Source of the DNA: a virus
Strand: one strand, 5' to 3'
Length of the DNA: 64,000 bases
IMG/VR virus record: IMGVR_UViG_3300017598_000441
Coordinates: 1 to 64,000 of that record
Part shown: piece by piece, positions 4,051 through 60,401 of the stretch
Layout of the letters: every line of letters begins with the position of its first letter
Position numbering within the stretch: the stretch's first letter is position 1
Notes under the pieces: generated by a model
What the model was told of the DNA's origin: nothing
The model's input: the letters and a program-made list of their open reading frames with translations, nothing else
The model's database searches: none
Program-made: the position numbers and the translations under genes

Positions 4051-4083
4051 TTTTGGAAAATCCAAATTAATGTACTACATTTG
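4051..4083 (+). promoter_or_regulatory. Bacteroidota-type promoter
   Basis: TTTTGG 4051 and TACATTTG 4076-4083. Confidence 0.7.
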
Positions 4084-4101
4084 TAAAAAATTGCTAAAAC
4101 T

Positions 4102-5766: not shown

Positions 5767-5830
5767 TATAAAAAATATGTTAATTTCCAAATAATAGATA
5801 AGATTTTTGGAAATTAACATATTTTTTATA
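5767..5830. repeat. perfect 25-bp inverted repeat with 14-nt spacer
   Basis: TATAAAAAATATGTTAATTTCCAAA (5767-5791) / TTTGGAAATTAACATATTTTTTATA (5806-5830). Confidence 0.9.
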
Positions 5831-5836
5831 CCTTTG
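5806..5836 (+). promoter_or_regulatory. Bacteroidota-type promoter of decoration/capsid genes
   Basis: TTTG 5806-5809 and TACCTTTG 5829-5836. Confidence 0.7.
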
Positions 5837-10782: not shown

Positions 10783-10813
10783 TTTGTTTTAGAAGTAAAA
10801 AGTATTATTTTTG
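10783..10813 (+). promoter_or_regulatory. Bacteroidota-type promoter of the tail operon
   Basis: TTTG 10783-10786, 19-nt spacer, TATTTTTG 10806-10813. Confidence 0.6.
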
Positions 10814-10830: not shown

Positions 10831-12399
10831 ATGGAATATCAAGGTAGAGCCAGAGTAGAAGTAAACATAGATGATAAATCTGTACTCCTTCAAGGGGGTA
10901 AACTAGGTAAAGCCGCCGTGCTTATCGAAGCAGAGAGAGGTGAGTTTAGTAAGCCTAGAACTGTACGAACTTGGGCAGAGTATAAAAAATATTATGGAGG
11001 ACTAGGGAAAGACTGGAAAACTCCAAACGCAACTTTATCTCCATACTTGGTAAAGAGAGCTTTAGAAGCAGGGGCAACTTTAGAAGTATCCAGAGTTGAA
11101 CACTATACCGATATAGCAGATACTGCTACTGGTACAAGTGTAAAACCTACAGCAACTATAGCAGCAGTAGAATTTACTGGAGCCACAGCAGGAGATTATT
11201 CTATTGAGGTATCTGTAGTAGCAGCTGCAAATGGGGTAGCAGATGAGTATGATATTACCGCCAAACTTGCAGGCTATCCAGAGTTGGATTCAGCCTTACA
11301 AATATCAAATGTGCCAGAAGTGGTAGATGCTACTGTAGCTGCAAACTTCTTGGCAGTAATGAAATATGTAGAAATAGGTACAGGTACAATAAACTTAGCT
11401 ACAGTACCAGTTTCAGCACCTCTTATAGGAGGTTCGTATGATAGTGGTAACTTAGTAGATGATGATTTTGTAGGAAGTGCCACAGCAGCTACAGGAATCC
11501 ACGCTTTCGACCCAGTACGTGATATATGGAGAATAGCTATCCCTCACAAATCTGTTCCAGTTATTGATATTGCTTTAGCAGACTATGCTAAAATGAGACA
11601 AGACCTACGTGCTATTTTAAGAACACCCACAGGGATAAATGGTGCAGGTGCAATAGATTATAGAAATGGTACAGGTATCTACTCACATACTGCTATTGAT
11701 ACACATTTTGCCTCTATGTTTACAGGAGGTCTCCAGATAAAAAATGCAGTAACAGGTGTTGTTGAAGATATTCCAGAAACGGCAGATATTTTAGGTTTAA
11801 AGGCTTTTAGAGACAACAAAAACAATTTTGAGTATAAGCCTTGGTTTGCATCAGCAGGACCAAAATACCCAATATTAAATGCCGTAGGTGTAGCTTATGA
11901 GTTCTCAACTCCCGCAAGAGCGTTGGAGTATGACGATGTAGCTAATGTGGGTATTAATACAGTTATCAATGACCCAGATTTCGGGATTGTACCAAATGAT
12001 AACAATACTCTACAGGTTAAGGATACCTTACTGAGCCACGAGAATGTATCGGAGCTTATGGTATATATGTTGAGAAACATTAAAATACTTGCAAAGAGCG
12101 AACAATTCAACCCGAATGATATTGATACTTGGAAAGCTATCCACAGAAAGATAACTCCATTTTTAGATGGATTAGTTACAGGGAGAGCAATATGGGAAGG
12201 GTATTTATACCAAGGAGACCAAGACATTGATTTTATCGAAGATGCTGTAGTAAATACTCCAGAGGGAATAGATGCAGGTGGATATACTGCGAACATCTAT
12301 GTAAAACCTAAGGTTGCACTTAAATACATAGGAATAAACATCGTAGTTACAAACTCTGGTGTGAACTTAACAGAACTTGCTGAACAGCTTGTATCTTAA
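10831..12399 (+). CDS. contractile tail sheath protein
   Basis: PWFASAG, GINTV, FNPND..TW and IYVKP..ALKYIGI sheath C-terminal motifs. Confidence 0.9.
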   Translation: MEYQGRARVEVNIDDKSVLLQGGKLGKAAVLIEAERGEFSKPRTVRTWAEYKKYYGGLGKDWKTPNATLSPYLVKRALEAGATLEVSRVEHYTDIADTATGTSVKPTATIAAVEFTGATAGDYSIEVSVVAAANGVADEYDITAKLAGYPELDSALQISNVPEVVDATVAANFLAVMKYVEIGTGTINLATVPVSAPLIGGSYDSGNLVDDDFVGSATAATGIHAFDPVRDIWRIAIPHKSVPVIDIALADYAKMRQDLRAILRTPTGINGAGAIDYRNGTGIYSHTAIDTHFASMFTGGLQIKNAVTGVVEDIPETADILGLKAFRDNKNNFEYKPWFASAGPKYPILNAVGVAYEFSTPARALEYDDVANVGINTVINDPDFGIVPNDNNTLQVKDTLLSHENVSELMVYMLRNIKILAKSEQFNPNDIDTWKAIHRKITPFLDGLVTGRAIWEGYLYQGDQDIDFIEDAVVNTPEGIDAGGYTANIYVKPKVALKYIGINIVVTNSGVNLTELAEQLVS

Positions 12400-16171: not shown

Positions 16172-16200
16172 GTTATATACGCAAAAAATTACTACATTTG
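16170..16200 (+). promoter_or_regulatory. Bacteroidota-type promoter
   Basis: TTG 16170-16172 and TACATTTG 16193-16200. Confidence 0.6.
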
Positions 16201-16231
16201 TACTTTAAACACATAACTAAAGAAAAAAGAC

Positions 16232-30911: not shown

Positions 30912-31826
30912 GTGGCAGTATCACATACTATTTTCACCGCTATTTTCATAGCCATTTTTACGATTCTTATAATAATGTACCTACTAGCTAGTAAAGCAAT
31001 AAGTAGGATAATGAAAATAGTGGCTGAAATAAAAACAGATGAAAGGAATAACCATAAGATACTGAGAGACTTGTCGGTACAAGTAACCCAATTAGGTAAC
31101 TCTTTTATAGAACTGGAGTCTAATGTGGATGTAAAATCTGGCTCGGATTTAGAATACCATACAGATATGGAATTAGTAAAACTTACCGTGCTAACTCCGT
31201 TCAATGATTTAAAATTATACCTAAACCGAAAACGTACCATATTAGTAGAGGAGGCTAAGAGGATGGCAAATATTGGAATTAAAAATTCTGATTTTACAAA
31301 TATTGAGGATAAGTGGGAGAGTATGAGATACGAGCTCAAAGATTTTTCAGATGGGTTATCGGAGGATTTCAAAAACTATAATGCAACTAAACCATCAAAC
31401 GAGCATTGGAAACTAGATGACTTTCTAAATGACTTATCCCACGCACTTAAATACGGAAATGGGAGCAGAGATATAATTTTCTTAAACCAGATGAAGGTTT
31501 ATATAAAAACTCAGTTAGAATACACGTTTAAAGATTATACTAGGTTCAAGGTGGAATCTTTAGGGGTGGATTCTTTAGATGTAAGTAAAACCTACCTAAT
31601 AAAATTACTGGAGGAGGATAATATAGAGATGGTATTATTCCAACTTCGTAACCAAACCCAAAGTAATACAGAGTTAAGCAGCAGGCTATCTCTTATACAG
31701 GCTCAGTACAACAGGCAGATAAAAGACAAGAACTCTGGCACATTCTCGGAGGAGGCTTTAAGAATATCCTGTAACAAAGTTAGGGCTGCAGTATTAGATT
31801 TTATAAAGGTAGTAGATATACATTAA
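30912..31826 (+). CDS. membrane-anchored protein with C-terminal EAD11 domain
   Basis: N-terminal TM helix, coiled coil, then LSLIQAQYNRQIKDKNSGTFSEEALRISCNKVRAAVLDFI. Confidence 0.7.
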   Translation: MAVSHTIFTAIFIAIFTILIIMYLLASKAISRIMKIVAEIKTDERNNHKILRDLSVQVTQLGNSFIELESNVDVKSGSDLEYHTDMELVKLTVLTPFNDLKLYLNRKRTILVEEAKRMANIGIKNSDFTNIEDKWESMRYELKDFSDGLSEDFKNYNATKPSNEHWKLDDFLNDLSHALKYGNGSRDIIFLNQMKVYIKTQLEYTFKDYTRFKVESLGVDSLDVSKTYLIKLLEEDNIEMVLFQLRNQTQSNTELSSRLSLIQAQYNRQIKDKNSGTFSEEALRISCNKVRAAVLDFIKVVDIH

Positions 31827-31859
31827 TTTTGGTTTATATCAAAAAATATTGTATCTTTG
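31827..31859 (+). promoter_or_regulatory. promoter of the replication module
   Basis: TTTTGG 31827 and TATCTTTG 31852-31859. Confidence 0.7.
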
Positions 31860-31881
31860 TAGAATAATTAAAACACACACA

Positions 31882-33327
31882 ATGACATTAGAGTTTGAAG
31901 AGAATATTCTTAGATACCTTGCCAATCCTAGTAATAAGAATAAAAAATTTATTGCTATTATTGAAGAAGATATATTTGAAGTACTTGAACATAAAATCGT
32001 GTTCAAATTATTGACTGGATATATAGAAGATTATAGATGTGTACCCACACAGATAGATTTTGTGGAATATACCAGTAGGCAAATGGAGATGGGAGATGTT
32101 GAAAGAGACATCTCAAAAGCCATACTAAGATTTGTAAAAAGAGGTCTATACAAACCTGTAGAAACTTCTGGAAAGTTCCTAAAAGAAACCATTGTAGAAT
32201 TTGCTCAATTCAAACTTATGAGCAATATGTTTGTAGAGTACGCCCCTAGACTTATAGAGGGCGTAACTCTGTTTCGTCAAGCAAAAAATAGAATGTTAGA
32301 TATTCTGGCTTTGTCAGATGATGACTCCGACAATTTCATACAGAGAGGGGGAGATATTCTAGTGAATGGTGGACTGGATACAGGAAAACTTAGCAAGGTT
32401 CTATACACACCTTACCAAGGTCTGAATATGACTATGGGAAGCCACGGTATAACGTCCCCAGAACTTGTGGTACTTATGGCAGGCTCAAAAGCCTTCAAAA
32501 CAGGAGTTATGATTAACATAGCTATAGGTATGGCTAAAAGAGGTAGCAAAGTTTACTATGCAGATGGAGAAAATGGCTACAAATCCATATCTCAAAGGGT
32601 TAAACAGAATGTTTGTGAATGTACCAAGTGGGAAGTAGTAGGGAATGCTTTTGAAGAGGAGATAGATGCCTATGGGGATGTAATAGAACAAGAATCTGTA
32701 TCAGATATGTTTGAAGCAGCATCCACTCAGATAAAAATGGTTGGAGGGGCATTTGTGATAGATAGTTATGCACCCTCTACAGCAACCGTGGCAGATGTGG
32801 AAGATTCTTTAGAGCAATACAAAGAAGAGACAGGGTTTGAGCCAGATATAATATTTTGGGATGACAGTTCACACTTTATTCCTAGGAAACCACAAGGGGC
32901 AGACCACCTAGATAGCCAAAGGGTTATAAAAGATATAATCGGACTGAATATGAAATTAGGGTGTGCATCCTTTACTCCTGCACAGGTAACTAGAGATGCA
33001 GTAGATAAACCTCTAATCTCAATAAAAGATATAGGCAGAGATTATGGAATAGTGAAGTACGCCCATGTAATATTATCTATAATAAGAAGCGTTCAAGAAA
33101 GAGAAGCTAACCTAGCCCAGTTATATTCTGTAGTGCAGAGGGAGGGAAAAAGCCAAGTAGGTGCCTGTATGTTAAAATTCAATGAAGAAAGAATGCAAGC
33201 AGATGAGGTAAGTTGGGAAGAAGCTGCAGAAATCACAGAGAATATGAGTGATTACACCCCAGATAATGTAAGAGGTAAAAAATCTGAGTATAAAGAGCAG
33301 ATAGGAAAAATAAAAAGAAACAAATAA
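31882..33327 (+). CDS. replicative DNA helicase (DnaB/T4 gp41-like, SF4)
   Basis: Walker A AGSKAFKT, DGE, IIFWDD and PAQVTR; ATG 31882 follows the ACACAC motif. Confidence 0.85.
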   Translation: MTLEFEENILRYLANPSNKNKKFIAIIEEDIFEVLEHKIVFKLLTGYIEDYRCVPTQIDFVEYTSRQMEMGDVERDISKAILRFVKRGLYKPVETSGKFLKETIVEFAQFKLMSNMFVEYAPRLIEGVTLFRQAKNRMLDILALSDDDSDNFIQRGGDILVNGGLDTGKLSKVLYTPYQGLNMTMGSHGITSPELVVLMAGSKAFKTGVMINIAIGMAKRGSKVYYADGENGYKSISQRVKQNVCECTKWEVVGNAFEEEIDAYGDVIEQESVSDMFEAASTQIKMVGGAFVIDSYAPSTATVADVEDSLEQYKEETGFEPDIIFWDDSSHFIPRKPQGADHLDSQRVIKDIIGLNMKLGCASFTPAQVTRDAVDKPLISIKDIGRDYGIVKYAHVILSIIRSVQEREANLAQLYSVVQREGKSQVGACMLKFNEERMQADEVSWEEAAEITENMSDYTPDNVRGKKSEYKEQIGKIKRNK

Positions 33328-33359
33328 TTTGTAAAGAAACTAATTATTCACTACATTTG
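33328..33359 (+). promoter_or_regulatory. Bacteroidota-type promoter of candidate sRNA
   Basis: TTTG 33328-33331, 20-nt spacer, TACATTTG 33352-33359. Confidence 0.7.
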
Positions 33360-33360
33360 T

Positions 33361-33450
33361 AACCTAGACAGACGTTGATTCGCCTGTTGTGATAACGTCA
33401 ATAGGTTCAGTTGTGTGTTCCCTGTTGGCGTTTTTCGGCTCTAAACAGTA
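33361..33450 (+). ncRNA. candidate small RNA or structured leader (two hairpins with a UG-rich linker)
   Basis: GC-rich intergenic island after a promoter; stems AACCTA/TAGGTT, GACGTT/AACGTC, TCGC/GTGA and CTGTT/AACAG. Confidence 0.55.
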
Positions 33451-33486
33451 AATAATCAATAAGTATAACTTTTTAAACTTTTAAAG

Positions 33487-33735
33487 ATGAGAGACTTAGT
33501 AATAGCAGTACTTATACTTTTAATAGCCCTTACAGGTTGTATAAGTAACGAAAAAAGATTAGAAGATGTTAAGAATAAAAACCCCGAACTAAGAATACAC
33601 CACGACCCCAAAAGACCCTATTTGTATGTTACCAATGACAGTATAAATGAAAGATTCATAATATACGAATCTTACAGGGATATGTTCTTGGAAACTAATG
33701 CAATATATTTTCCCTACGACAGCATAAATAAGTAA
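33487..33735 (+). CDS. small lipoprotein
   Basis: Hydrophobic signal and lipobox LTGC. Confidence 0.7.
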   Translation: MRDLVIAVLILLIALTGCISNEKRLEDVKNKNPELRIHHDPKRPYLYVTNDSINERFIIYESYRDMFLETNAIYFPYDSINK

Positions 33736-33774: not shown

Positions 33775-33801
33775 CACCTAATAAAAACACACACTTTAAA
33801 A

Positions 33802-34800
33802 ATGCTAAGTTCCAGAAAACTATACACATACTTTGACAGCAAGTTCAATATAAAGAAGTCCAGTAATGGATGGTACAGTATGGAATGTCCGTACTGTAAC
33901 GGGGGTAGAAAATCGGAAATCTCTGGAGCAGTACATTTTGAAATGGAAATTTTTAAGTGTTGGAGAGCTAAATGTGAGAAGAAAGCATCGGTCACAGATT
34001 TCATAATTTTTTTCGAGAGAGTCAATTACAGAGGTGTAGTAGATTTAGTAGAGAATTATAAAGAAACATCTGTAGTATTTGAGAAAAACAAAACTTCAAA
34101 GGTGGATTTGGAGACTTTAAGAAAAGAAGTAAACCTACCTTACGGATTTACTTCTATCATGGAGGATACAGATATGGCTATAAGGGCATATAATTACCTG
34201 TTTGACCGAGGTTTTACCGATACTGAGGCACTAGATAACTGTGGGTGGGGTTTCGGCTCCAAAAAGCATAAAAACTTCAAGGAAGATTACTATGGATATA
34301 TTATAGTGCCTTTCATAAATAAAGGTAAATTTACTTATTTTCTAGGCAGGGATTTTTTAAACAGGGATAAGAAGTATAAGTATAAAAATCCATCAAAAAA
34401 TGATTTTGGGGTAGGTAGGTCTGAAATTCTGTTTAATGAAGATGCACTTATGAAGTATGATAAAGTGTATTTATCTGAGGGAGTTTTTTGTGCTAAAACT
34501 ATAGGTGAGCAAGGAATAGCTACTTTAGGTTGGAGTATGTCTCCTATACAGAAAAACAAGATAATAAAATCCCACTCTAAGGAATTGATAGTAGCTGCAG
34601 ATGTAGGGTTCTACAAAAAAGCTGTACAGGCTATGATTCCATTTTTACCATTCAAAAATATAAAGGTAGTTAATTTCGAGAATGAGAGTTTAGCTGCAGT
34701 AGGGGGAGATATAAATGATGTAGGAAAAAAATTATTCCTACAAGAAGAAGAACGTACTGAGTATTTAACTATGGCAAGTGCCATGAAAATAATGATATGA
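33802..34800 (+). CDS. DNA primase (Zn finger + TOPRIM)
   Basis: CPYC...CWRAKC, KYKNP, LFNED, EGVFCA and ADVG. Confidence 0.85.
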   Translation: MLSSRKLYTYFDSKFNIKKSSNGWYSMECPYCNGGRKSEISGAVHFEMEIFKCWRAKCEKKASVTDFIIFFERVNYRGVVDLVENYKETSVVFEKNKTSKVDLETLRKEVNLPYGFTSIMEDTDMAIRAYNYLFDRGFTDTEALDNCGWGFGSKKHKNFKEDYYGYIIVPFINKGKFTYFLGRDFLNRDKKYKYKNPSKNDFGVGRSEILFNEDALMKYDKVYLSEGVFCAKTIGEQGIATLGWSMSPIQKNKIIKSHSKELIVAADVGFYKKAVQAMIPFLPFKNIKVVNFENESLAAVGGDINDVGKKLFLQEEERTEYLTMASAMKIMI

Positions 34801-37209: not shown

Positions 37210-37222
37210 AACACACACAGAA

Positions 37223-38737
37223 ATGGAAATAATACTAGGTAACGTAAGATGTAAATGCGTAATAACCTCCGAAGATAGAAAACTAGGTTTTGATGCAATA
37301 AAAAAACTTAGGGAGATTCTTAGAGAGAGGCCCGATGGATACCACCGTTCGGAGAGATTCCAAAAAGGTCAGTGGGATGGGTATTCTTATTTCCTTACCC
37401 CAAAAACGAGAGTGTTTCCAACAGGTATGCTACCTTGGGTGTTGCAATATTGCAAGGCACTTGGGATAAAAACAGAGATAACTGATAAACGAAATAACTT
37501 ACCAGAATTTACCGATTCCTTAGTAGATTCTTTTGGTGATATAACCTTATGGGACTACCAAAAAGACTTGGTAGAAATAGTTAGGAACAACCGACTAAAG
37601 ATTTCTGAGGATGAGTCAATAAGTTTCAACAGAGGTATATTCGATGTAGCTACCAATGCAGGAAAAACAGTAATAATGCTAGGGGTATATTTTAACCTAA
37701 AAACCCCTAAATTACTATTCTTAACCAGAAGATTTGCATTATTTGTTCAGACAGTAGAGTTTTTCGAGAAATATGTAGAGGATGTAGGGGTGATTCACTC
37801 AGCTACTGCCAAACACCCAGACAAACGTTGGAGAAAAGCAAACTACAAAATAGGTTCTGTTACTATTGCTATGACACCCACCCTAACCAGAAGGTTAAAT
37901 AAAATAAATGTACAAAAAGATTTGAAGGCCTTTAATATGCTAGTTGCGGATGAGTGCCATTATTCCACAGCAGACACGGAAAAAGCCATAATTAATAAAA
38001 CAGATGCAGGGCTGAGAATGTTTGTATCTGGAACTCCTTTTGCCAAAGTGGGAGATAAGGTAAAAAAGCTAAATCTTATTGCTATGGCAGGGCCTGTAAT
38101 AGGTAAAATCAGCAACAAGGATTTGGTAGAAAAGGGAGTAAGTAGGCAAATAAAAGTGCATATACATTTGAACCACGTAATCCAGAAAGGAGGTTTTCCT
38201 GCGATAGATTACGCAAGCCAGATGGAAAATTTTATACACACGTCAAAAGAAAGATGCAGAATTATCCATAAAGAGGTAACAGAAAACCCAAACAATATAC
38301 ATTTAATAACATACATAAACGAGGAGCATGGAAAGTTTATGTATGATTATCTTACTAGCCAAGAGGGTTATCATATACCCACGGTAGTTACAGGGGGTTG
38401 GGATACCAAAGGCAGACACAATAAGCAGAAAATGTTTATGAATAAACAGATAAATGTATTCATTGTATCTGAAATAATTAGAGAGGGGTTGAATATGCCA
38501 TTCTTAGACACTCTTATATATTCTGGAGGAGGAAGTAGCAGCATAGGGTTGAAACAATGGTTTGGAAGAGGGATAAGAATAGGCTCTTTACAGCAGAATT
38601 TTAAGGTATTAGATTTTATGGATATAGGACATAAAATAATGCCACACTCCAAAAAAAGGGTAAAGATATACGAGGAAGAGGGTTACATCATAGAGAAATA
38701 CTATGATGAGAAGGAGATTAAAAAATTATCAAATTAA
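37223..38737 (+). CDS. SF2 DExH helicase (UvsW-like)
   Basis: ATNAGKT, DECH, SGTP, EGLN and QWFGRGIR. Confidence 0.9.
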   Translation: MEIILGNVRCKCVITSEDRKLGFDAIKKLREILRERPDGYHRSERFQKGQWDGYSYFLTPKTRVFPTGMLPWVLQYCKALGIKTEITDKRNNLPEFTDSLVDSFGDITLWDYQKDLVEIVRNNRLKISEDESISFNRGIFDVATNAGKTVIMLGVYFNLKTPKLLFLTRRFALFVQTVEFFEKYVEDVGVIHSATAKHPDKRWRKANYKIGSVTIAMTPTLTRRLNKINVQKDLKAFNMLVADECHYSTADTEKAIINKTDAGLRMFVSGTPFAKVGDKVKKLNLIAMAGPVIGKISNKDLVEKGVSRQIKVHIHLNHVIQKGGFPAIDYASQMENFIHTSKERCRIIHKEVTENPNNIHLITYINEEHGKFMYDYLTSQEGYHIPTVVTGGWDTKGRHNKQKMFMNKQINVFIVSEIIREGLNMPFLDTLIYSGGGSSSIGLKQWFGRGIRIGSLQQNFKVLDFMDIGHKIMPHSKKRVKIYEEEGYIIEKYYDEKEIKKLSN

Positions 38738-38770
38738 TTTTGGTATATCTCAAAACTTTTCTTACCTTTA
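38738..38770 (+). promoter_or_regulatory. promoter (TAnnTTTA variant)
   Basis: TTTTGGTATATCTCAAAA and TACCTTTA 38763-38770. Confidence 0.7.
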
Positions 38771-38799
38771 CAGCAGTAAAAAATCTAAAAACACACACA

Positions 38800-40278
38800 A
38801 TGGAAAATCTAAGTGAAGTAATTTTATCTGAGACCCTAAAAGGAATCTCAGATAAAACACTACTAGAGGTAAAAAATAAGAAAACCAAAAAATTTGCCAA
38901 CAGCCTTTGGGATGAATTTAGTAGTGAGAATATGGAAAAAACCCTTTGGTACAAAGATGGAAAATTCTCTGCTGAAATGCTTACAGAAAGTCTGCCCATA
39001 GTACTCAGCAACTGTAGAGAGGAATTAGTCCCAAAAGAGACTAAGCCTAAAGCCCTAAAACATAAAACTAAAAAAATAGAGGTAGGTAAATTGTCTGGAA
39101 AGTTTGGGTTAGAAGATATTCTGTACCTGTGGAGACTAGATGGAAATACTCCATACGGAAGCAACCCCAAACCTAAAGGGTATGATGAACCCAAACTTAC
39201 AGGCTTTAATCAAATGGATGAAATTCCTGTAGCAAGTATAGCAGATTCATTAAAGCTTATATATAAAACTGAGGAAGAGATAGTTTTAGAGGCCAAAAGA
39301 AATCTGAAAGCCCTAAGAAATAATATAGAACTCTTAACTGCACTACCTAGGAAGATAAAGAGAACAAAGCAAACTATTAAAAATATGCAGTCAGATATAG
39401 TAGAACTCAGCTATATCGTAAATAATCCTCAAAATATAAAGAATACAATAAACTACTATAAAAGTCTGCATGAAAGGCAATGGGTTACTAGGTTCACTAA
39501 TAAGAACTTTTATGTAAAGAAGGTGTATCCGTATTCTAATACTAAACAGGATATAAAAGAGGATTTCTATAAATGTTTACTGTATTTAGGGTTGGATAAC
39601 AAACCAAACCTAAACCTACACAGATATTTCATAGCTTATCAAAAAGACTTGGTAGCTATAGTCAGTACCGCAGTACTTTTATTAGAATCTTGTTACACAT
39701 ACCCAAACTTAACCCTAAAAAAGTTTGAGGAGATGAGTACGGGTCTGCCCTACAACTTCTACTGGCAGACTGCAGAAGTATATAAAAATACCTACGATAA
39801 ATACACAGAGTTAATAAATGAATTGATGAAAAACCCTACAAGAAAAAAGAAGGTTTTACTGGACCTTACAGAACCTGTAACTATGGAAAAAATAAAAAAA
39901 TATTCAGTGCCAGATTGTTTTGGGCAGGAGTTTGATATAAGAGATAACTCTTGTGCCAAATGCCATGATAACACCACTTGCGGAATTATATACAGGGATA
40001 CTGTAGGAAGTAAGGCAAAAAAGCAAGTAGATAAATTCGTAGCACCTCCCTTGGATACCGTAGATTTCTCAGAACTAGATGAGAAAAAAGATAGGATAGT
40101 TGCCCTACTAAAGCAAAAAGCCAAAACAGGAAAGAACATGACAATAGCCGCATTGGTGAAACATATTGAAAAAATATCAAAGTGTGGAGATAAGGAAGCT
40201 GTACACGGATATTTCAAAAGACTTATTCTGGAGAATGGTCTAGGCACAAAAGATGGGGTAGTAATTATAAAATCATAA
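38800..40278 (+). CDS. hypothetical protein with Cys cluster
   Basis: ATG 38800 follows the ACACAC motif; PDCFG...CAKC...C. Confidence 0.7.
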   Translation: MENLSEVILSETLKGISDKTLLEVKNKKTKKFANSLWDEFSSENMEKTLWYKDGKFSAEMLTESLPIVLSNCREELVPKETKPKALKHKTKKIEVGKLSGKFGLEDILYLWRLDGNTPYGSNPKPKGYDEPKLTGFNQMDEIPVASIADSLKLIYKTEEEIVLEAKRNLKALRNNIELLTALPRKIKRTKQTIKNMQSDIVELSYIVNNPQNIKNTINYYKSLHERQWVTRFTNKNFYVKKVYPYSNTKQDIKEDFYKCLLYLGLDNKPNLNLHRYFIAYQKDLVAIVSTAVLLLESCYTYPNLTLKKFEEMSTGLPYNFYWQTAEVYKNTYDKYTELINELMKNPTRKKKVLLDLTEPVTMEKIKKYSVPDCFGQEFDIRDNSCAKCHDNTTCGIIYRDTVGSKAKKQVDKFVAPPLDTVDFSELDEKKDRIVALLKQKAKTGKNMTIAALVKHIEKISKCGDKEAVHGYFKRLILENGLGTKDGVVIIKS

Positions 40279-43455: not shown

Positions 43456-43468
43456 AATAGGTAATTAA

Positions 43469-43501
43469 TTTTGGTATATATCAAAACTTTTATTATCTTT
43501 G
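43469..43501 (+). promoter_or_regulatory. promoter
   Basis: TTTTGGTATATATCAAAA and TATCTTTG 43494-43501. Confidence 0.75.
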
Positions 43502-45660: not shown

Positions 45661-45681
45661 TTTTAACAACAAAAACACACA

Positions 45682-46716
45682 ATGAGTAAATTAGCAGTAG
45701 CATTCGGAGACGTACAAATACATAACTATAGAGCTTATGACAAGAACACTGGGAGGAGGTTGGATAACACACTAAAGGCTGTAGAGCATATATTTGACTT
45801 CGCAGGAAAAAGTGGTATAGAATATATTTTGTTTGTGGGAGACTTGTTCGACCAACAAAAGAACCTACCCACAATAGTGATAAATAAAACGGTGGAGACC
45901 TTTTCTAAATGTTTTAAAAAACATCCAAACATAATATTTTTAGGTATTACAGGAAACCACGACCAAAGTTCTCAGCAACTGTTAGAGAAAGATGCAATAT
46001 CCTCTCTAACTTTCTTAGGTAATATATTTGATAACTTTGTAATACTAGACAACAAAAACTACGAAATTCCAGTAGATAAGGATTTTTCTGGGACACAGCC
46101 TGTTAAAATTACAGGAATACCCTACTACGAGTATTCAGAACATTTTTTGACAAGGTTAGGTCAAGTTTCAGAAGAGGTAAAAAACAATAGTGCAAATTAT
46201 GTAAATATCCTACTTACACACCAAACCCCCACAGGCCTAGGAAATCCAAACATACCTGTGGATGTAGATGTAAACGACCCTAAGTTAGAATGTTTTGATT
46301 TAGTTCTAAATGGGCATATACATAAATACCAAGAGATTACTAAAAAGTTTATAGATGTAGGTAGCCCTATAGCTAGAGATGCAGACGATGAGGGTGACGA
46401 AAAAGGGTATTTGGTGATAAATTTAGAGAGGCCTCAGACCCGAAAATTCAAATCCCTAAACAGCGAATTTCCTGTAATTATTACTAAATATTCTGGAGAC
46501 GAAATGACTGAATGGGAGCAACAGCAATACGTGAGAGAAGTCCCCTTACCTATAGAGGAGGTAAATGAAATAATTAATACATCCAACTACACAGCAGATT
46601 TAAAAGCCTCAGAGATTATCGAAAACTTCTGTAATGATACAGAGAACCTAGAAAAAATATCTATGGGGTTAAAAATACTGCAAGATGCAAACATTAAAAA
46701 CACACACAATGAGTAG
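45682..46716 (+). CDS. SbcD/Mre11-like metallophosphoesterase nuclease
   Basis: GDVQI, GDLFD, GNHD, THQ and GHIH. Confidence 0.88.
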   Translation: MSKLAVAFGDVQIHNYRAYDKNTGRRLDNTLKAVEHIFDFAGKSGIEYILFVGDLFDQQKNLPTIVINKTVETFSKCFKKHPNIIFLGITGNHDQSSQQLLEKDAISSLTFLGNIFDNFVILDNKNYEIPVDKDFSGTQPVKITGIPYYEYSEHFLTRLGQVSEEVKNNSANYVNILLTHQTPTGLGNPNIPVDVDVNDPKLECFDLVLNGHIHKYQEITKKFIDVGSPIARDADDEGDEKGYLVINLERPQTRKFKSLNSEFPVIITKYSGDEMTEWEQQQYVREVPLPIEEVNEIINTSNYTADLKASEIIENFCNDTENLEKISMGLKILQDANIKNTHNE

Positions 46717-50056: not shown

Positions 50057-50682
50057 TGATTATTATAGATTGCTTCGGAGATGGTTCTTGTAAGAACATC
50101 AAAGACACCCCCTCAGATATGGGTGTAGGAGTAGTAATATTCTACAAAGGCAAATTGATAACTCAAATAGCCAAACACGTAGGAAAAGGCACTTCTAACC
50201 TATCTGAGTGGGAAGCTTTGATACTTGCCCTAAGAACGGCAGTAAAATATGTACAAACCCACTTAAAAGACGAAATAGTTACTATTAACTACTATGCAGA
50301 TAGCAAGGTGGTGGTTAATATGTTTAACGGTCTATACTCAAATAAAAAGTTTAGGGCAGAATACAACAGGGCAAAATACTGGGAAGACAAACTTCAAAAG
50401 AATCACAGAATAGAAGTTAGTTGGATACCTAGAGAAGAAAACACACACGCAGACAAACTTTCCAAAATAGGTAATCCCTATTTCATACGAGAAAAAATGA
50501 CTTTTGAGGAGTATGCTATAAGACAGGCGTACATATTCTCAAAAAAAGCCACACCCCCAAACCTAGATACAGCAGAATACAGTTACTTACAAGGGCAGAT
50601 GGATTTAATGGAATCCCTAATTTCCAGTAAGGTTTTGACTAAAACTAAGGCAAAAGAATTAATCAAAAATTATACTAAATAA
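50056..50682 (+). CDS. ribonuclease HI-like protein
   Basis: DGSC, TSNLSEWEA, DSK and WIPREENTHADKLS. Confidence 0.88.
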   Translation: MIIIDCFGDGSCKNIKDTPSDMGVGVVIFYKGKLITQIAKHVGKGTSNLSEWEALILALRTAVKYVQTHLKDEIVTINYYADSKVVVNMFNGLYSNKKFRAEYNRAKYWEDKLQKNHRIEVSWIPREENTHADKLSKIGNPYFIREKMTFEEYAIRQAYIFSKKATPPNLDTAEYSYLQGQMDLMESLISSKVLTKTKAKELIKNYTK

Positions 50683-50715
50683 TTTTGGTATATATCAAAA
50701 CTTTATTTATCTTTA
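50683..50715 (+). promoter_or_regulatory. promoter (TAnnTTTA variant)
   Basis: TTTTGGTATATATCAAAA and TATCTTTA 50708-50715. Confidence 0.7.
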
Positions 50716-50742
50716 CGGCAGTAAAAAATCTTAAAACACACG

Positions 50743-51006
50743 ATGGAAAACACATTCAAAGGAATACGAGCTTCATATAACAACGAAATAGGAGAACCAA
50801 TAATATCTGGTCAGATAGTAGAAGTATATGGTAGGTTAGCACCTAGAGAGACACATGAAATCTATTTTGAACCTAATCATGGTTTTAGGGTTCAAGGAAA
50901 CAATCTATCAGATGCAATCATAACTAAGGTGGTGAAAGATGTACGACTGAAAGACAGAATAATAGGAAACCTACAGTTCTTAAAGTTTTCAATTCTAGGT
51001 AAGTAA
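50743..51006 (+). CDS. hypothetical protein
   Basis: 87-aa ORF after a promoter and the ACACAC motif. Confidence 0.65.
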   Translation: MENTFKGIRASYNNEIGEPIISGQIVEVYGRLAPRETHEIYFEPNHGFRVQGNNLSDAIITKVVKDVRLKDRIIGNLQFLKFSILGK

Positions 51007-51047
51007 GAACACAAGATTAGTAAAGTAAAAATCTTAAAACACACACG

Positions 51048-52526
51048 ATGGAAACAGAAATATTACCAACCTCAAAAGGTAGAGTATCTACCAAGAAACC
51101 TCCAACGGTATTATCATTCTTGGGAGACCAAGAAGATAAGTTTAAGGAAATATTAGACTTCATACATTTAGATGACCCTAAGGCAGGAAACATAGGCTTG
51201 TTACAAGGCCCCGCAGGGACAGGTAAAACCTACCTAGTGGGAGTATTAATACAAACCTTAAAAGACCAAAACTTCAAGAACATAGGAGTTTTAGCACCCA
51301 CAGGACAGGCTGTTAAAATCTGTAGGGAGAATGCAGTAGAGCAATCTGATACTATAAGATATGGGACTGTACATTCTGCATTCGCAGTAAGACCAAAAAA
51401 GGAGAGTGAAATACCTATTTTTGAGGTAGATAAAAATGGGACTCAGTGGGCTAGAGATTGCTCAATACTTTTTGTAGATGAGGTTTCCCAGATTGCAGAC
51501 GACTTATTTTTCCTCTTGGAAGATTATGCTACCCAGTTAGATAAAAAAGTAATTCTAATAGGAGATAGTTATCAAATACCTCCGATAGGGTTTGAATATT
51601 CAATACCTTTTACAAAAGCCGAGCAGAAAGAGTATGATATAAAAGTATTCGAGCTAAAAAAACCTATCCGACAAAAGGAGGGAAGTCCTATACTAGATAA
51701 TGCCGACCTAATCAGAAAATATATCAAATACCCAGAAATTTATTTACCCGAAGACAGAAAAAATAGATTTAACAGTAAAAGGGAAGGTATAGAATTTATC
51801 AAAGACAAGGGTTCGCATAAGGAACTTCTGAAAAAATGGTTTCTACATCCCGAGTACCAAAACAATAGATATTTTGTGAAAGTACTAGCATGGAGAAATG
51901 ATACCGTAGATAACTGGAACACCCAAGTAAGAAAAGTCTTATATGGAGACAATCCAGATAATATTGAAGATACCAGAAGCAAATCTATAAAACAGTTAGT
52001 AAAAGGTGAAAAACTGATTTCTAATAGTCCTGTAATAGAGAAAAATGATTTTGGGGATGATGCGGTAGTTTTTGGGTCAAACGAAGATTTAATGTTAGTA
52101 TCTTACATAGAGGATACCTACAAGGTGGATGAGGCAGGAAAATTTATCTTAGGGTACTATGATGCTATAGTAGAATACTTAGACCAAGATGGGATAGTAT
52201 GTACTTACACAATCAAGATTCTAAAAAATGAATCGAAAAAACTACACCAGAAAATACAGGATAAACTGGCTAAAATAGCAAAGGCAGAACCCAAAGGTAG
52301 CAATGGGGCTAGAGCAGGTTGGGCAGATTTCTGGGAGTTTGATGCAATATTTGCAGATGTGAATTATAACTATTGCCAAACTTGCCATAAAAGCCAAGGC
52401 AGTACTTATCTTAATTCTATAGTACTAGAGTGGGATATTTTACTGGGTAGGAAAGTTTTCGAGAGAAATAGAATCTTATATGTAGGAGCTTCCAGAGCAA
52501 AACAAAATTTAATCCAAATATACTAA
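51048..52526 (+). CDS. SF1B helicase (Dda/RecD-like)
   Basis: GPAGTGKT, APT, VDE, GDSYQIPPI, RQ, HKSQGST and YVGASR. Confidence 0.92.
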   Translation: METEILPTSKGRVSTKKPPTVLSFLGDQEDKFKEILDFIHLDDPKAGNIGLLQGPAGTGKTYLVGVLIQTLKDQNFKNIGVLAPTGQAVKICRENAVEQSDTIRYGTVHSAFAVRPKKESEIPIFEVDKNGTQWARDCSILFVDEVSQIADDLFFLLEDYATQLDKKVILIGDSYQIPPIGFEYSIPFTKAEQKEYDIKVFELKKPIRQKEGSPILDNADLIRKYIKYPEIYLPEDRKNRFNSKREGIEFIKDKGSHKELLKKWFLHPEYQNNRYFVKVLAWRNDTVDNWNTQVRKVLYGDNPDNIEDTRSKSIKQLVKGEKLISNSPVIEKNDFGDDAVVFGSNEDLMLVSYIEDTYKVDEAGKFILGYYDAIVEYLDQDGIVCTYTIKILKNESKKLHQKIQDKLAKIAKAEPKGSNGARAGWADFWEFDAIFADVNYNYCQTCHKSQGSTYLNSIVLEWDILLGRKVFERNRILYVGASRAKQNLIQIY

Positions 52527-53235: not shown

Positions 53236-53266
53236 CAAGAAAAGCCGTACATTTGCGGCTTTTCTT
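53223..53266 (+). promoter_or_regulatory. promoter whose -7 box forms the loop of an 11-bp terminator-like hairpin
   Basis: TTTG 53223; AAGAAAAGCCG-TACATTTG-CGGCTTTTCTT 53237-53266. Confidence 0.65.
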
Positions 53267-54210: not shown

Positions 54211-54414
54211 ATGATATTAAAACCCACCGCCTTTATTCAAGGGCATAGCTTTGATTTAAAAACCCGATTAGAAAACTATAAGAAATATAGGAAACCTAAA
54301 AGAGTGAAACCCTTGGACAGCTACACAGCTTTTATATGTTGCTATGGGGATTTGAGAGAAAATTATTTCAACCAAGAAAATTTAAAAAACACACACGATG
54401 GAATGGAGAATTAA
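54211..54414 (+). CDS. hypothetical protein
   Basis: 67-aa ORF in operon. Confidence 0.55.
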   Translation: MILKPTAFIQGHSFDLKTRLENYKKYRKPKRVKPLDSYTAFICCYGDLRENYFNQENLKNTHDGMEN

Positions 54415-57479: not shown

Positions 57480-57486
57480 AAATAAA

Positions 57487-57518
57487 TTTGGTACTTAACA
57501 AAATTTTTATTATCTTTA
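57487..57518 (+). promoter_or_regulatory. promoter (TAnnTTTA variant)
   Basis: TTTGG 57487 and TATCTTTA 57511-57518. Confidence 0.7.
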
Positions 57519-57549
57519 CATCAAAGAAATATAAACAAAAACACACACA

Positions 57550-57885
57550 ATGCAAATAGGTAAATTAAAAGGTCGAACAGTCCAGTTCGGGAAAAGCAAA
57601 GGACAACCTTGCTACAGAAACCCTAAAGCCTTCCAGAAAAAAACAAATGAAATCTGCTACATACCCAAACATGGTATGGAGACGACATCTGGAGGAGATT
57701 TAGACAATGCGAGCATAATCTTTAAATATCAAGATATGCTAAGAATGTCCAGAGGGTATGTATTAAGGAACAACCTAGCAGACTCTTATGAGGACGTGGC
57801 TAAAACCTTATTCAACGAATGCCACGGAATGCTGCCGAGTACAATCTTAGAGAATTGGGAGATGGACTTACAGTATCCCAGTTAA
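57550..57885 (+). CDS. hypothetical protein
   Basis: 111-aa ORF after a promoter and the ACACAC motif. Confidence 0.7.
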   Translation: MQIGKLKGRTVQFGKSKGQPCYRNPKAFQKKTNEICYIPKHGMETTSGGDLDNASIIFKYQDMLRMSRGYVLRNNLADSYEDVAKTLFNECHGMLPSTILENWEMDLQYPS

Positions 57886-59729: not shown

Positions 59730-59927
59730 ATGTTAGAATTACTAGACAAAAAGTACGAGGGAGCAATTACATCAGAACCGACTACTCTTAGGGTAGATGG
59801 CAAAGCTACAAAACTGAAATTATTCATAGATACTTTGGAGAGTAGTGGAGTATCTGAAAAAACAGCAATAAACAGGTTCAGTAAATTCGTTAGAGACAAC
59901 GATATGATTGAACTAATTAATAATTAA
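59730..59927 (+). CDS. hypothetical protein
   Basis: 65-aa ORF after tandem promoters. Confidence 0.6.
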   Translation: MLELLDKKYEGAITSEPTTLRVDGKATKLKLFIDTLESSGVSEKTAINRFSKFVRDNDMIELINN

Positions 59928-59963
59928 CACACACAAACAACACACACAAACAAAACACACACA

Positions 59964-60401
59964 ATGAGAAAAAAAATTGTATTACTAGACTTGAACAGCA
60001 CGCTTGCAGTAAAATCTAGCTATGACTGGAGAACATTTACTTACGATGTATCCGCAGATGAGTACTCAAAGGAGTTAATAGAAAAACTCAAATCGGAGGG
60101 GCACGAAGTATGGATTCTAACTGCCAGAACTACAGAGTATGAAAAAGATACTTTGGAGAAATTGATGAAAGACACAGGTTATGCTCCAGATAAATGCTTC
60201 TTTAAAGGACATGGAGGGAAACAAGAAAGAAAACTTCCTGCACACATTTACAAAAGATTATTTGTAGAGGAGCTTCTGAAATCTGGGGAGTATAAAACAT
60301 CTGATTTCATTGCTGTAGAAAGTAATTTTAAAACGCATAAACAATACAGAGAACTGGGACTCACGGAGATTTATAAGAGAGACCAGTATCTGAAACTGTA
60401 A
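59964..60401 (+). CDS. HAD-superfamily protein with variant motif I
   Basis: IVLLDLNSTL, ILTAR, conserved K and AVESN. Confidence 0.7.
   Translation: MRKKIVLLDLNSTLAVKSSYDWRTFTYDVSADEYSKELIEKLKSEGHEVWILTARTTEYEKDTLEKLMKDTGYAPDKCFFKGHGGKQERKLPAHIYKRLFVEELLKSGEYKTSDFIAVESNFKTHKQYRELGLTEIYKRDQYLKL

Follow-up and report, generated by a model that had tools for sequence, protein, structure and literature searches.

A candidate small RNA of a Bacteroidota-type phage with a hairpin loop complementary to the shared CA leaders of replication genes

We wanted to investigate what is encoded in a gap of 159 nt (33328-33486) in a virus genome, which separates the gene of a DnaB-like helicase (31882-33327, + strand) from an open reading frame of a small lipoprotein (33487-33735, + strand). 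An earlier note on this DNA had proposed that the gap gives rise to a trans-acting small RNA, and that the seed of this RNA is complementary to a motif located at the start codons of 11 genes. The window, that is the whole stretch of DNA that was analysed, comprises bases 1-64000 of a virus record of 73,679 bp, which is rated complete. The genome has approximately 36% GC and its + strand carries essentially all genes. The segment 33361-33450 contains 44% GC, and its description as GC-rich was therefore correct. The lipoprotein gene is followed by the gene of a primase (33802-34800) and further by that of a dUTPase. The lipoprotein itself has 82 amino acids and a signal peptide with the lipobox L-T-G-C. 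We did not detect any homologues of it in a homologue search, nor did it match a Pfam family; it could be an outer-membrane spanin-like or a superinfection-exclusion protein.

Several simple origins of the gap were set aside. It is not a mobile or repeated element, as no second copy of these 159 nt was found in the rest of the genome. It does not look like a remnant of an open reading frame or like a leader peptide gene either, since it has no ATG and only a 20-codon GVG-type frame which begins at GTG 33389. There was no tRNA-like signal that would suggest an attP site or a tRNA fragment as the origin; ARAGORN found no tRNA or tmRNA. Comparison of the window with Rfam 15, in which GcvB, C4, riboswitches and ribozymes are included, gave no match at the gathering score, and with the threshold relaxed to E<=10 only chance-level matches (E 7-8) were obtained for 33250-33560.

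The gap begins with a promoter motif. The -33 element TTTG (33328-33331, + strand) is placed directly after the helicase stop codon (33325-33327), and a spacer of 20 nt separates it from the -7 element TACATTTG (33352-33359, + strand). Promoters of Bacteroidota sigma-A have TTTG at -33 and TAnnTTTG at -7, approximately 19-21 nt apart, and the promoter of the locus matches this consensus perfectly. The earlier note was thus right about the presence of a promoter motif, but the canonical promoter it named is of the Bacteroidota sigma-A type and not of the sigma-70 type. In flavobacteria the -7 box occupies positions -12 to -5 (PMC9723704), therefore transcription is predicted to start at approximately 33364 (+/-2 nt). 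A scan for sigma-70 and terminator consensus sequences reported neither this promoter nor the hairpin described below, because both are outside the rules of the scan (the hairpin loop has 15 nt, compared with the 3-8 nt allowed).

Paired TTTG/TAnnTTTG motifs in this genome are mostly true gene-proximal promoters. The plain class of promoters is built of TTTG, approximately 20 nt and TAC-A/C-TTTG or TATTTTTG, with no additional cassette, and it precedes the genes of the portal, head protease, tail sheath, gene 16232 and endolysin, as well as the major-head-protein operon. The -7 boxes of this class with the sequence TAC(A/C)TTTG are located at 1637-1644, 4076-4083, 5829-5836, 10806-10813, 16193-16200, 33352-33359 and 53248-53255. 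Exactly the same TACATTTG forms the -7 box upstream of three genes, those of the head protease (4076), gene 16232 (16193) and the endolysin (53248). The extended -7 region shares 12-13 identical nucleotides with 4074-4086 (head protease) and 16191-16202 (gene 16232). Since TACATTTG and the extended -7 region are common to such promoters, we assigned the promoter of the locus to the head/tail/lysis class, yet it is located in the replication module. The second class is a stereotyped cassette, TAATTTTGGTA..CAAAA..TATCTTTAC, which is found before replication genes and small early-looking genes (31824-31859, 38735-38775, 43466-43501, 50680-50720 and 57483-57520). Each cassette leads into one of two fixed 5' leaders, either the CA tag or AAACCACTAAATTTTAGACC. 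Genes with the CA leader have the cassette promoter and differ in this respect from the locus.

Two further observations concern the plain class. One is that an orphan lipoprotein of 82 amino acids would be expressed from a predicted late-class promoter inside the replication module. The other is that at 53240-53262 the -7 box of the endolysin promoter is placed in the loop of a terminator hairpin (AAAGCCG..CGGCTTT followed by a T-run). The new start lies inside the 3' arm of that hairpin, therefore the endolysin transcript would escape termination, while the transcripts coming from upstream would stop.

We analyzed how the RNA initiated at the locus would fold. Counted from the predicted start to the end of the U-run, it would have approximately 72 nt (33364-33435, + strand; both ends are predicted). 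Its minimum free energy was -22.8 kcal/mol (z = -3.78) and none of 200 shuffled sequences reached a value as low. The final fold consists of a small 5' hairpin (33367-33388, + strand) and a terminator-like hairpin of 12 bp (33394-33432, + strand), the arms of which, 33394-33405 and 33421-33432, enclose a loop of 15 nt (33406-33420). This second hairpin alone had -15.3 kcal/mol (z = -5.57; 0 of 200 shuffles as low). It runs directly into a U5 tract (33431-33435, + strand), the first two U of which belong to the stem. A stable stem of 12 bp which contains G and C and is directly followed by U5 is what is expected of an intrinsic terminator. The loop is longer than the approximately 3-8 nt of a short-loop terminator; another terminator of this phage has a loop of 14 nt. 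The remaining strong terminators of the phage have T5-T6 runs. Among 90 hairpins abutting runs of at least five T on the + strand, the hairpin with its T-run took the third place. The other five hairpins with -12 kcal/mol or less all resemble terminators at gene ends, and the intragenic ones were weaker. Because the hairpin with U5 is terminator-like, a discrete RNA of approximately 72 nt would result. The predicted promoter and terminator delimit a short segment without an ATG, and the same DNA also serves the lipoprotein gene as a 5' leader and the helicase gene as a 3' UTR. We consider it reasonably secure that a late-class promoter leads here into a strongly folded segment which ends in a terminator-grade hairpin.

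This structure differs from the one drawn before. The hairpin previously placed at 33361-33407 needs AACCTA (33361-33366), which lies mostly 5' of the predicted start, so that its outer arm would be largely untranscribed. The second one (33422-33448) is weak, with -5.5 kcal/mol, and the segments of 90 nt and 160 nt chosen at that time fold unremarkably in comparison with shuffled sequences (z = -1.6 and z = -1.2, respectively). The seed had been described as an unpaired linker between the two hairpins. It is indeed predicted to be unpaired, but it sits in the loop of the 12-bp hairpin: UUGUGUGUU occupies 33411-33419 (+ strand) with an unpaired probability of 0.7-0.8, and it is predicted to stay exposed to this degree in transcripts of 72-157 nt.

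The element that this loop would recognize, ACACAC(A/G)-ATG, is real and enriched, as had been noticed. The CA-leader pattern matched 20 times, with 1.75 matches expected, and ACACAC was counted 41 times on the + strand and 6 times on the - strand. The leader is located directly at the ATG in 13 genes, 11 of which are in the window and 2 beyond it. The helicase gene next to the gap has it at 31873-31884 (ATG included), and the other genes of the window at 33787-33804, 37211-37225, 38791-38802, 45675-45684, 46700-46711, 50736-50745, 51039-51050, 54389-54400, 57541-57552 and 59955-59966, in each case on the + strand. According to the provisional annotation, both helicases, the primase (with an offset of 7 nt), SbcC, SbcD, a Dda-like helicase and a ligase are among the products of these genes. 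The CA tag is tightly tied to ATGs, also within operons and where it overlaps an upstream coding sequence, therefore its role should be sought at the level of RNA or translation rather than in a promoter. At 59926-59966 it is present in three tandem copies ahead of a single gene (ATG at 59964). A second class of leader, AAACCAC-T/A-AAATTTTAGACC-ATG, was observed on small genes at 66-72 kb.

Further, we searched bacterial genomes with a CA leader of 16 nt (T-AAAA-CACACACA-ATG). Bacteroidota accounted for 41 of the 80 matches listed (L208-L287). Among these listed matches the leader stood directly before an open reading frame in 31 of 41 copies from Bacteroidota, compared with 9 of 39 from other phyla. 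Since the leader is strongly over-represented in Bacteroidota and mostly located directly before open reading frames there, the CA tag probably has the function of a general start signal in this phylum and is not confined to phages. It most likely serves as a translation enhancer, by analogy with the ACA motifs of enterobacterial mRNAs. The start regions of the phage do not contain Shine-Dalgarno sequences and its promoters follow the TTTG / TAnnTTTG pattern of Bacteroidota. Taken together with the presence of the CA leader mainly in Bacteroidota genomes, this indicates that the host is most likely a member of the Bacteroidota. The earlier note had also considered that the RNA could guide translation. 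This variant found no support, as the CA leader is common without such an RNA, including in Bacteroidota genomes.

We compared the loop with the leaders. The sequence TTGTGTGTT is present at 33411-33419, where it had been reported, and it is complementary to the CA leader. The loop pairs with each of the 13 leaders over 8-10 contiguous base pairs, in a register in which its last U is placed against the A of AUG. The A or G at position -1 pairs with one and the same U, which agrees with the earlier observation. When 1168 sense-strand windows of the genome were evaluated against the 13 leaders, the locus scored best (-13.2; next window -10.8; genome mean -5.8, sd 1.4; z about -5). In a control scan against the second leader class we did not observe any comparable outlier. 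We consider it reasonably secure that no other site of the genome matches the CA leaders as well as the hairpin loop. Of 500 dinucleotide shuffles of the leader, which is rich in G and U, 13 (2.6%) paired equally well. Taken alone, the position of the locus as the best anti-leader site is suggestive, not decisive.

When accessibility was taken into account and the start regions of 96 genes were ranked, the 13 CA-leader genes took places 2-14, with net energies between -8.3 and -10.8 kcal/mol, and the next start region was set apart from them at -6.5. The ranking thus agreed with the proposed targets except for its first place, which was taken by gene 16232; this gene has a AAACACAUAACUA stretch and no CA leader. 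In silico, the RNA therefore has an accessible seed that is complementary to several start regions above background. There are only six GTGTGT sites on the + strand, two of which are non-coding, and non-coding DNA makes up approximately 6% of the genome. The only other non-coding site lies past the window, at 65954-65990. There GTGTGT forms a terminator stem by pairing with ACACAC located 11 nt downstream, and TTTTATTTT follows, so that a UG run is sequestered in cis by a CA run.

These numbers also allow a more ordinary reading, which we consider unlikely but far from negligible: the hairpin would be just the terminator of the helicase unit, placed by chance 3' of the lipoprotein promoter, and the UG run would be a chance feature of its loop. 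The hairpin is the first strong one with a T-run 3' of the helicase stop codon, the pairing spans just 8-10 bp and is equalled by 2.6% of shuffles, and one of six GTGTGT sites falling in approximately 6% of non-coding DNA is not rare. On the other hand, a promoter put ahead of a terminator is an odd means to express the next gene. At the endolysin gene the same phage puts the -7 box inside the terminator loop, from where the transcript escapes. Pure chance is further opposed by the recurrence of UG runs beside terminators specifically in phages with CA leaders, which we describe below.

The CA leader is widespread in viral contigs, where 95 of 149 matches start an open reading frame. Our main set consisted of all 29 fetched loci with at least two CA leaders and was picked irrespective of UG content. 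In these loci 12 of 29 sense-strand TGTGTGT sites were non-coding, compared with 14.7% for 34 composition-matched 7-mers (p = 6e-4). In 110 loci with a single match the corresponding values were 9 of 47 and 10.6% (p = 0.09). In 12 full or partial genomes with CA leaders 14 of 36 UG sites were non-coding, compared with 10.3% for controls (p = 8e-6), and a terminator-like hairpin was found within 90 nt of 9 of the 14 non-coding UG sites, while among 232 control sites 41 had one (p = 3e-4). The selection of eight of the 12 genomes was made after non-coding UG sites had been seen, three of the 12 (G002, G004 and G011) belong to a single lineage, and the inverted terminal repeats of one record contribute two copies of a site. 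The region with the UG run and terminator was 92% identical in the alignment of G002, G004 and G011, and it is therefore uninformative on selective conservation. In 1.17 Mb of control DNA, composed of distant relatives without CA leaders and of the single-match loci, we found one site with a UG run and a terminator. One record with CA leaders, G010, which is 89% complete, had no UG run.

The usual order of elements in those phages is stop codon, UG run and terminator, often with no obvious promoter ahead. In several cases AU or CAU, which is complementary to the start codon, stands before the UG run. The phage studied here differs, as its UG run belongs to the terminator loop and a promoter of its own lies upstream. 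The usual order places the UG run in a 3' UTR, and this raises the question whether it might act without any free small RNA, either by folding back onto the CA leader of its own message or, in read-through transcripts, onto that of the next gene, or at the level of DNA, as an inverted copy of a site for a protein which recognizes the CA/TG duplex. The helicase message has both the CA leader and the hairpin, and on duplex DNA the CA and UG motifs are one sequence. Nevertheless, at this locus a dedicated consensus promoter stands 35 nt 5' of the fold, and the nearest CA leader downstream is approximately 375 nt away, past the lipoprotein gene. The attachment of the CA motif to ATGs even in operons speaks for a role at the level of RNA. 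We regard such action without a free RNA as improbable, the least likely of the alternatives that we weighed.

The locus might also work in cis on the lipoprotein gene. The RNA contains a direct repeat, CCTGTTG (33383-33389 and 33421-33427, + strand), and both copies can pair with CAATAGG (33399-33405). The elements CTGTT (33384-33388) and AACAG (33444-33448), from which an alternative fold had been suggested before, are present at these positions. In a growing transcript that has reached up to 33428, an alternative fold with -16.3 kcal/mol is favoured, in which GACAGAC, located close to the 5' end, is the pairing partner of the seed and the 5' arm of the terminator is occupied by the first CCTGTTG copy. 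The competing copies could form a toggle between antiterminator and terminator, as the folding model suggests. When the complete lipoprotein message was folded, the seed was paired to coding sequence far away from it; we gave this little weight because the prediction is long-range.

In this alternative, the hairpin with U5 would be the premature terminator of an attenuator, its formation would be governed by competing folds or by a factor, and the match of its loop to the leaders would be incidental or a by-product. We find it somewhat less likely than a trans-acting RNA, with a chance of about one in four. There is no consensus promoter of the lipoprotein gene's own between the hairpin and the gene, which makes its expression dependent on read-through, and the two CCTGTTG copies vie for one partner, with the terminator 5' arm tied up in transcripts that have grown up to 33428. 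It is well known that terminators in leaders release short RNAs, the PR'-tR' transcript StxS being an example (PMC7547250), and flavobacteria commonly have structured 5' leaders (PMC9723704). Against this, the locus matches no known cis-regulatory family and has no ATG for a leader peptide. An attenuator also leaves unexplained why the loop outranks every other sense-strand site in pairing with the leaders and why UG runs are found beside terminators in other phages with CA leaders. It is compatible with an additional role in trans.

We favour, with a probability of roughly 0.35, a trans-acting role of the RNA of approximately 72 nt, which would repress the CA-leader genes as an anti-enhancer in the manner of GcvB. 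In this model the late-class promoter (33328-33359) would start the RNA at approximately 33364, and a part of the transcripts would stop at the hairpin with U5 (33394-33435) and yield the free species of approximately 72 nt. The same hairpin would form the 3' end of the helicase message, while read-through would give the lipoprotein message. The loop of 15 nt would display UUGUGUGUU, which may pair with the A-C-A-C-A-C-A/G tag and the A of AUG (with a U-G wobble in addition) in 13 replication and recombination genes. Masking of the CA tag would then lower the translation of the whole gene set at the onset of late transcription. The proposal of a small RNA which pairs with shared CA leaders thus retains its core: the promoter class, the hairpin with U5, the exposed seed, the ranking and the recurrence of UG runs all agree with it. 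The structure that had been drawn is incorrect in its details. A broader version is somewhat more doubtful still. According to it, phages of Bacteroidota would possess a general leader / anti-leader type of translational control, in which a CA enhancer is used instead of the Shine-Dalgarno sequence and is masked by a UG RNA located at or in a terminator; in the present phage this would be a late-made off switch for replication genes.

The closest known parallel comes from enterobacteria, in which ACA motifs 5' of start codons have been proven to enhance translation, and GcvB silences them with its G/U-rich seed (PMC3879156). GcvB and the 3'-UTR-derived small RNA DapZ resemble the phage RNA in having a G/U-rich single-stranded seed directed against C/A-rich elements upstream of many start codons (PMC3879156). 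Masking of this type represses a whole regulon because the target element is itself a translation enhancer. There is no homology of sequence or structure between GcvB and the phage RNA, and Rfam finds none. The seed of GcvB is placed in a linear region, whereas that of the phage RNA is in a terminator loop. Moreover, the phage RNA is encoded by a phage, its targets would be the phage's own replication genes, the pairing would take in the A of AUG, and the inferred host phylum does not use Shine-Dalgarno pairing. Bacteroidota are not known to rely on Hfq.

The late system of lambda and Stx phages is similar in its architecture: a late-type promoter is followed by an intrinsic terminator within approximately 70-200 nt, and both a short RNA and read-through are produced (PMC7547250). 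StxS, released there by early termination after the late promoter, is a regulator, but it acts on host mRNAs via Hfq, while the phage RNA would act on phage leaders (PMC7547250). Unlike in that system, no Q-like antiterminator or qut-like site was identified for the locus. Phage factors that mask ribosome-loading regions of the phage's own genes are represented by the c4 antisense RNA of phages P1 and P7, which has one target operon and forms a defined Rfam family, and by the RegA protein of T4, a repressor of a group of early genes that includes many replication genes. The c4 family was not matched at the locus, and RegA is a protein, not an RNA. Small structured RNAs are also known in Bacteroidota, namely GibS of Bacteroides thetaiotaomicron (PMC7366714) and Rfp18 of Flavobacterium psychrophilum (PMC9723704). 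For their exposed segments, pairing with the start regions of several mRNAs was predicted or demonstrated (PMC7366714, PMC9723704), and the pairing region of Rfp18 is a stem-loop (PMC9723704). Unlike the phage RNA, both are encoded on the chromosome; they are not related to it in sequence, and what they control is host metabolism or proteases. A literature search did not find a published phage or Bacteroidota counterpart of the UG anti-leader RNA, which does not disprove the existence of one.

The locus bears on how start codons are chosen and tuned without Shine-Dalgarno sequences in Bacteroidota and their phages. If the proposed model is true, one short RNA would control a dozen genes via a common enhancer that is independent of the Shine-Dalgarno sequence. 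It would offer a simple and testable model for the function of the CA-tag enhancer and for temporal control in a large group of barely studied environmental phages, and possibly a compact multi-gene off switch for genetic tools of Bacteroidota.

We looked for relatives of the locus. Homologues of the helicase with 55%, 48% and at least 90% identity were present in a protein collection (P0002, P0003 and P0009). Blastn and tblastn against GenBank phages gave no DNA match, and the helicase matches there did not exceed approximately 26% identity. When viral contigs were searched with the helicase alone, with the seed region or with the promoter cassette, there was either no match or one chance match (L143). 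Scans of viral and metagenome contigs with a helicase profile identified only relatives with 27-36% identity, which lack the cassette of promoter, RNA and lipoprotein gene as well as CA leaders, and a similar scan of genome contigs identified no relatives. In most loci of these distant relatives (L002-L025) there is a short overlap between the helicase gene and the primase gene, typically of 8 nt (e.g. L002:7319-7326), and in a few others a short insert or gap is present at the junction (L007:6820-7167, L011:5295-5429, L009:3321-3698). Since the two genes mostly overlap in distant relatives and the cassette is absent from them, the promoter, RNA and lipoprotein gene are a lineage-specific insertion. 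The helicase-primase junction looks like a hot spot for accessory cargo, as different small inserts are found there in several lineages, this phage included.

One viral contig with a CA leader contained an element of another kind. In an unrelated phage (L072, IMGVR_UViG_3300025079_000007) a hammerhead-like core, CTGATGAG..CGAAAC, is located just 5' of a CA-leader gene (10906-10973, + strand). It scored 25.2 bits against Rfam Hammerhead_1 (gathering score 34; E = 0.003). The contig further has three neighbouring genes that share an upstream arrangement, composed of a terminator, a GTAGGA..TCCTAC hairpin and a common TTTAAAACACACACAATG leader.
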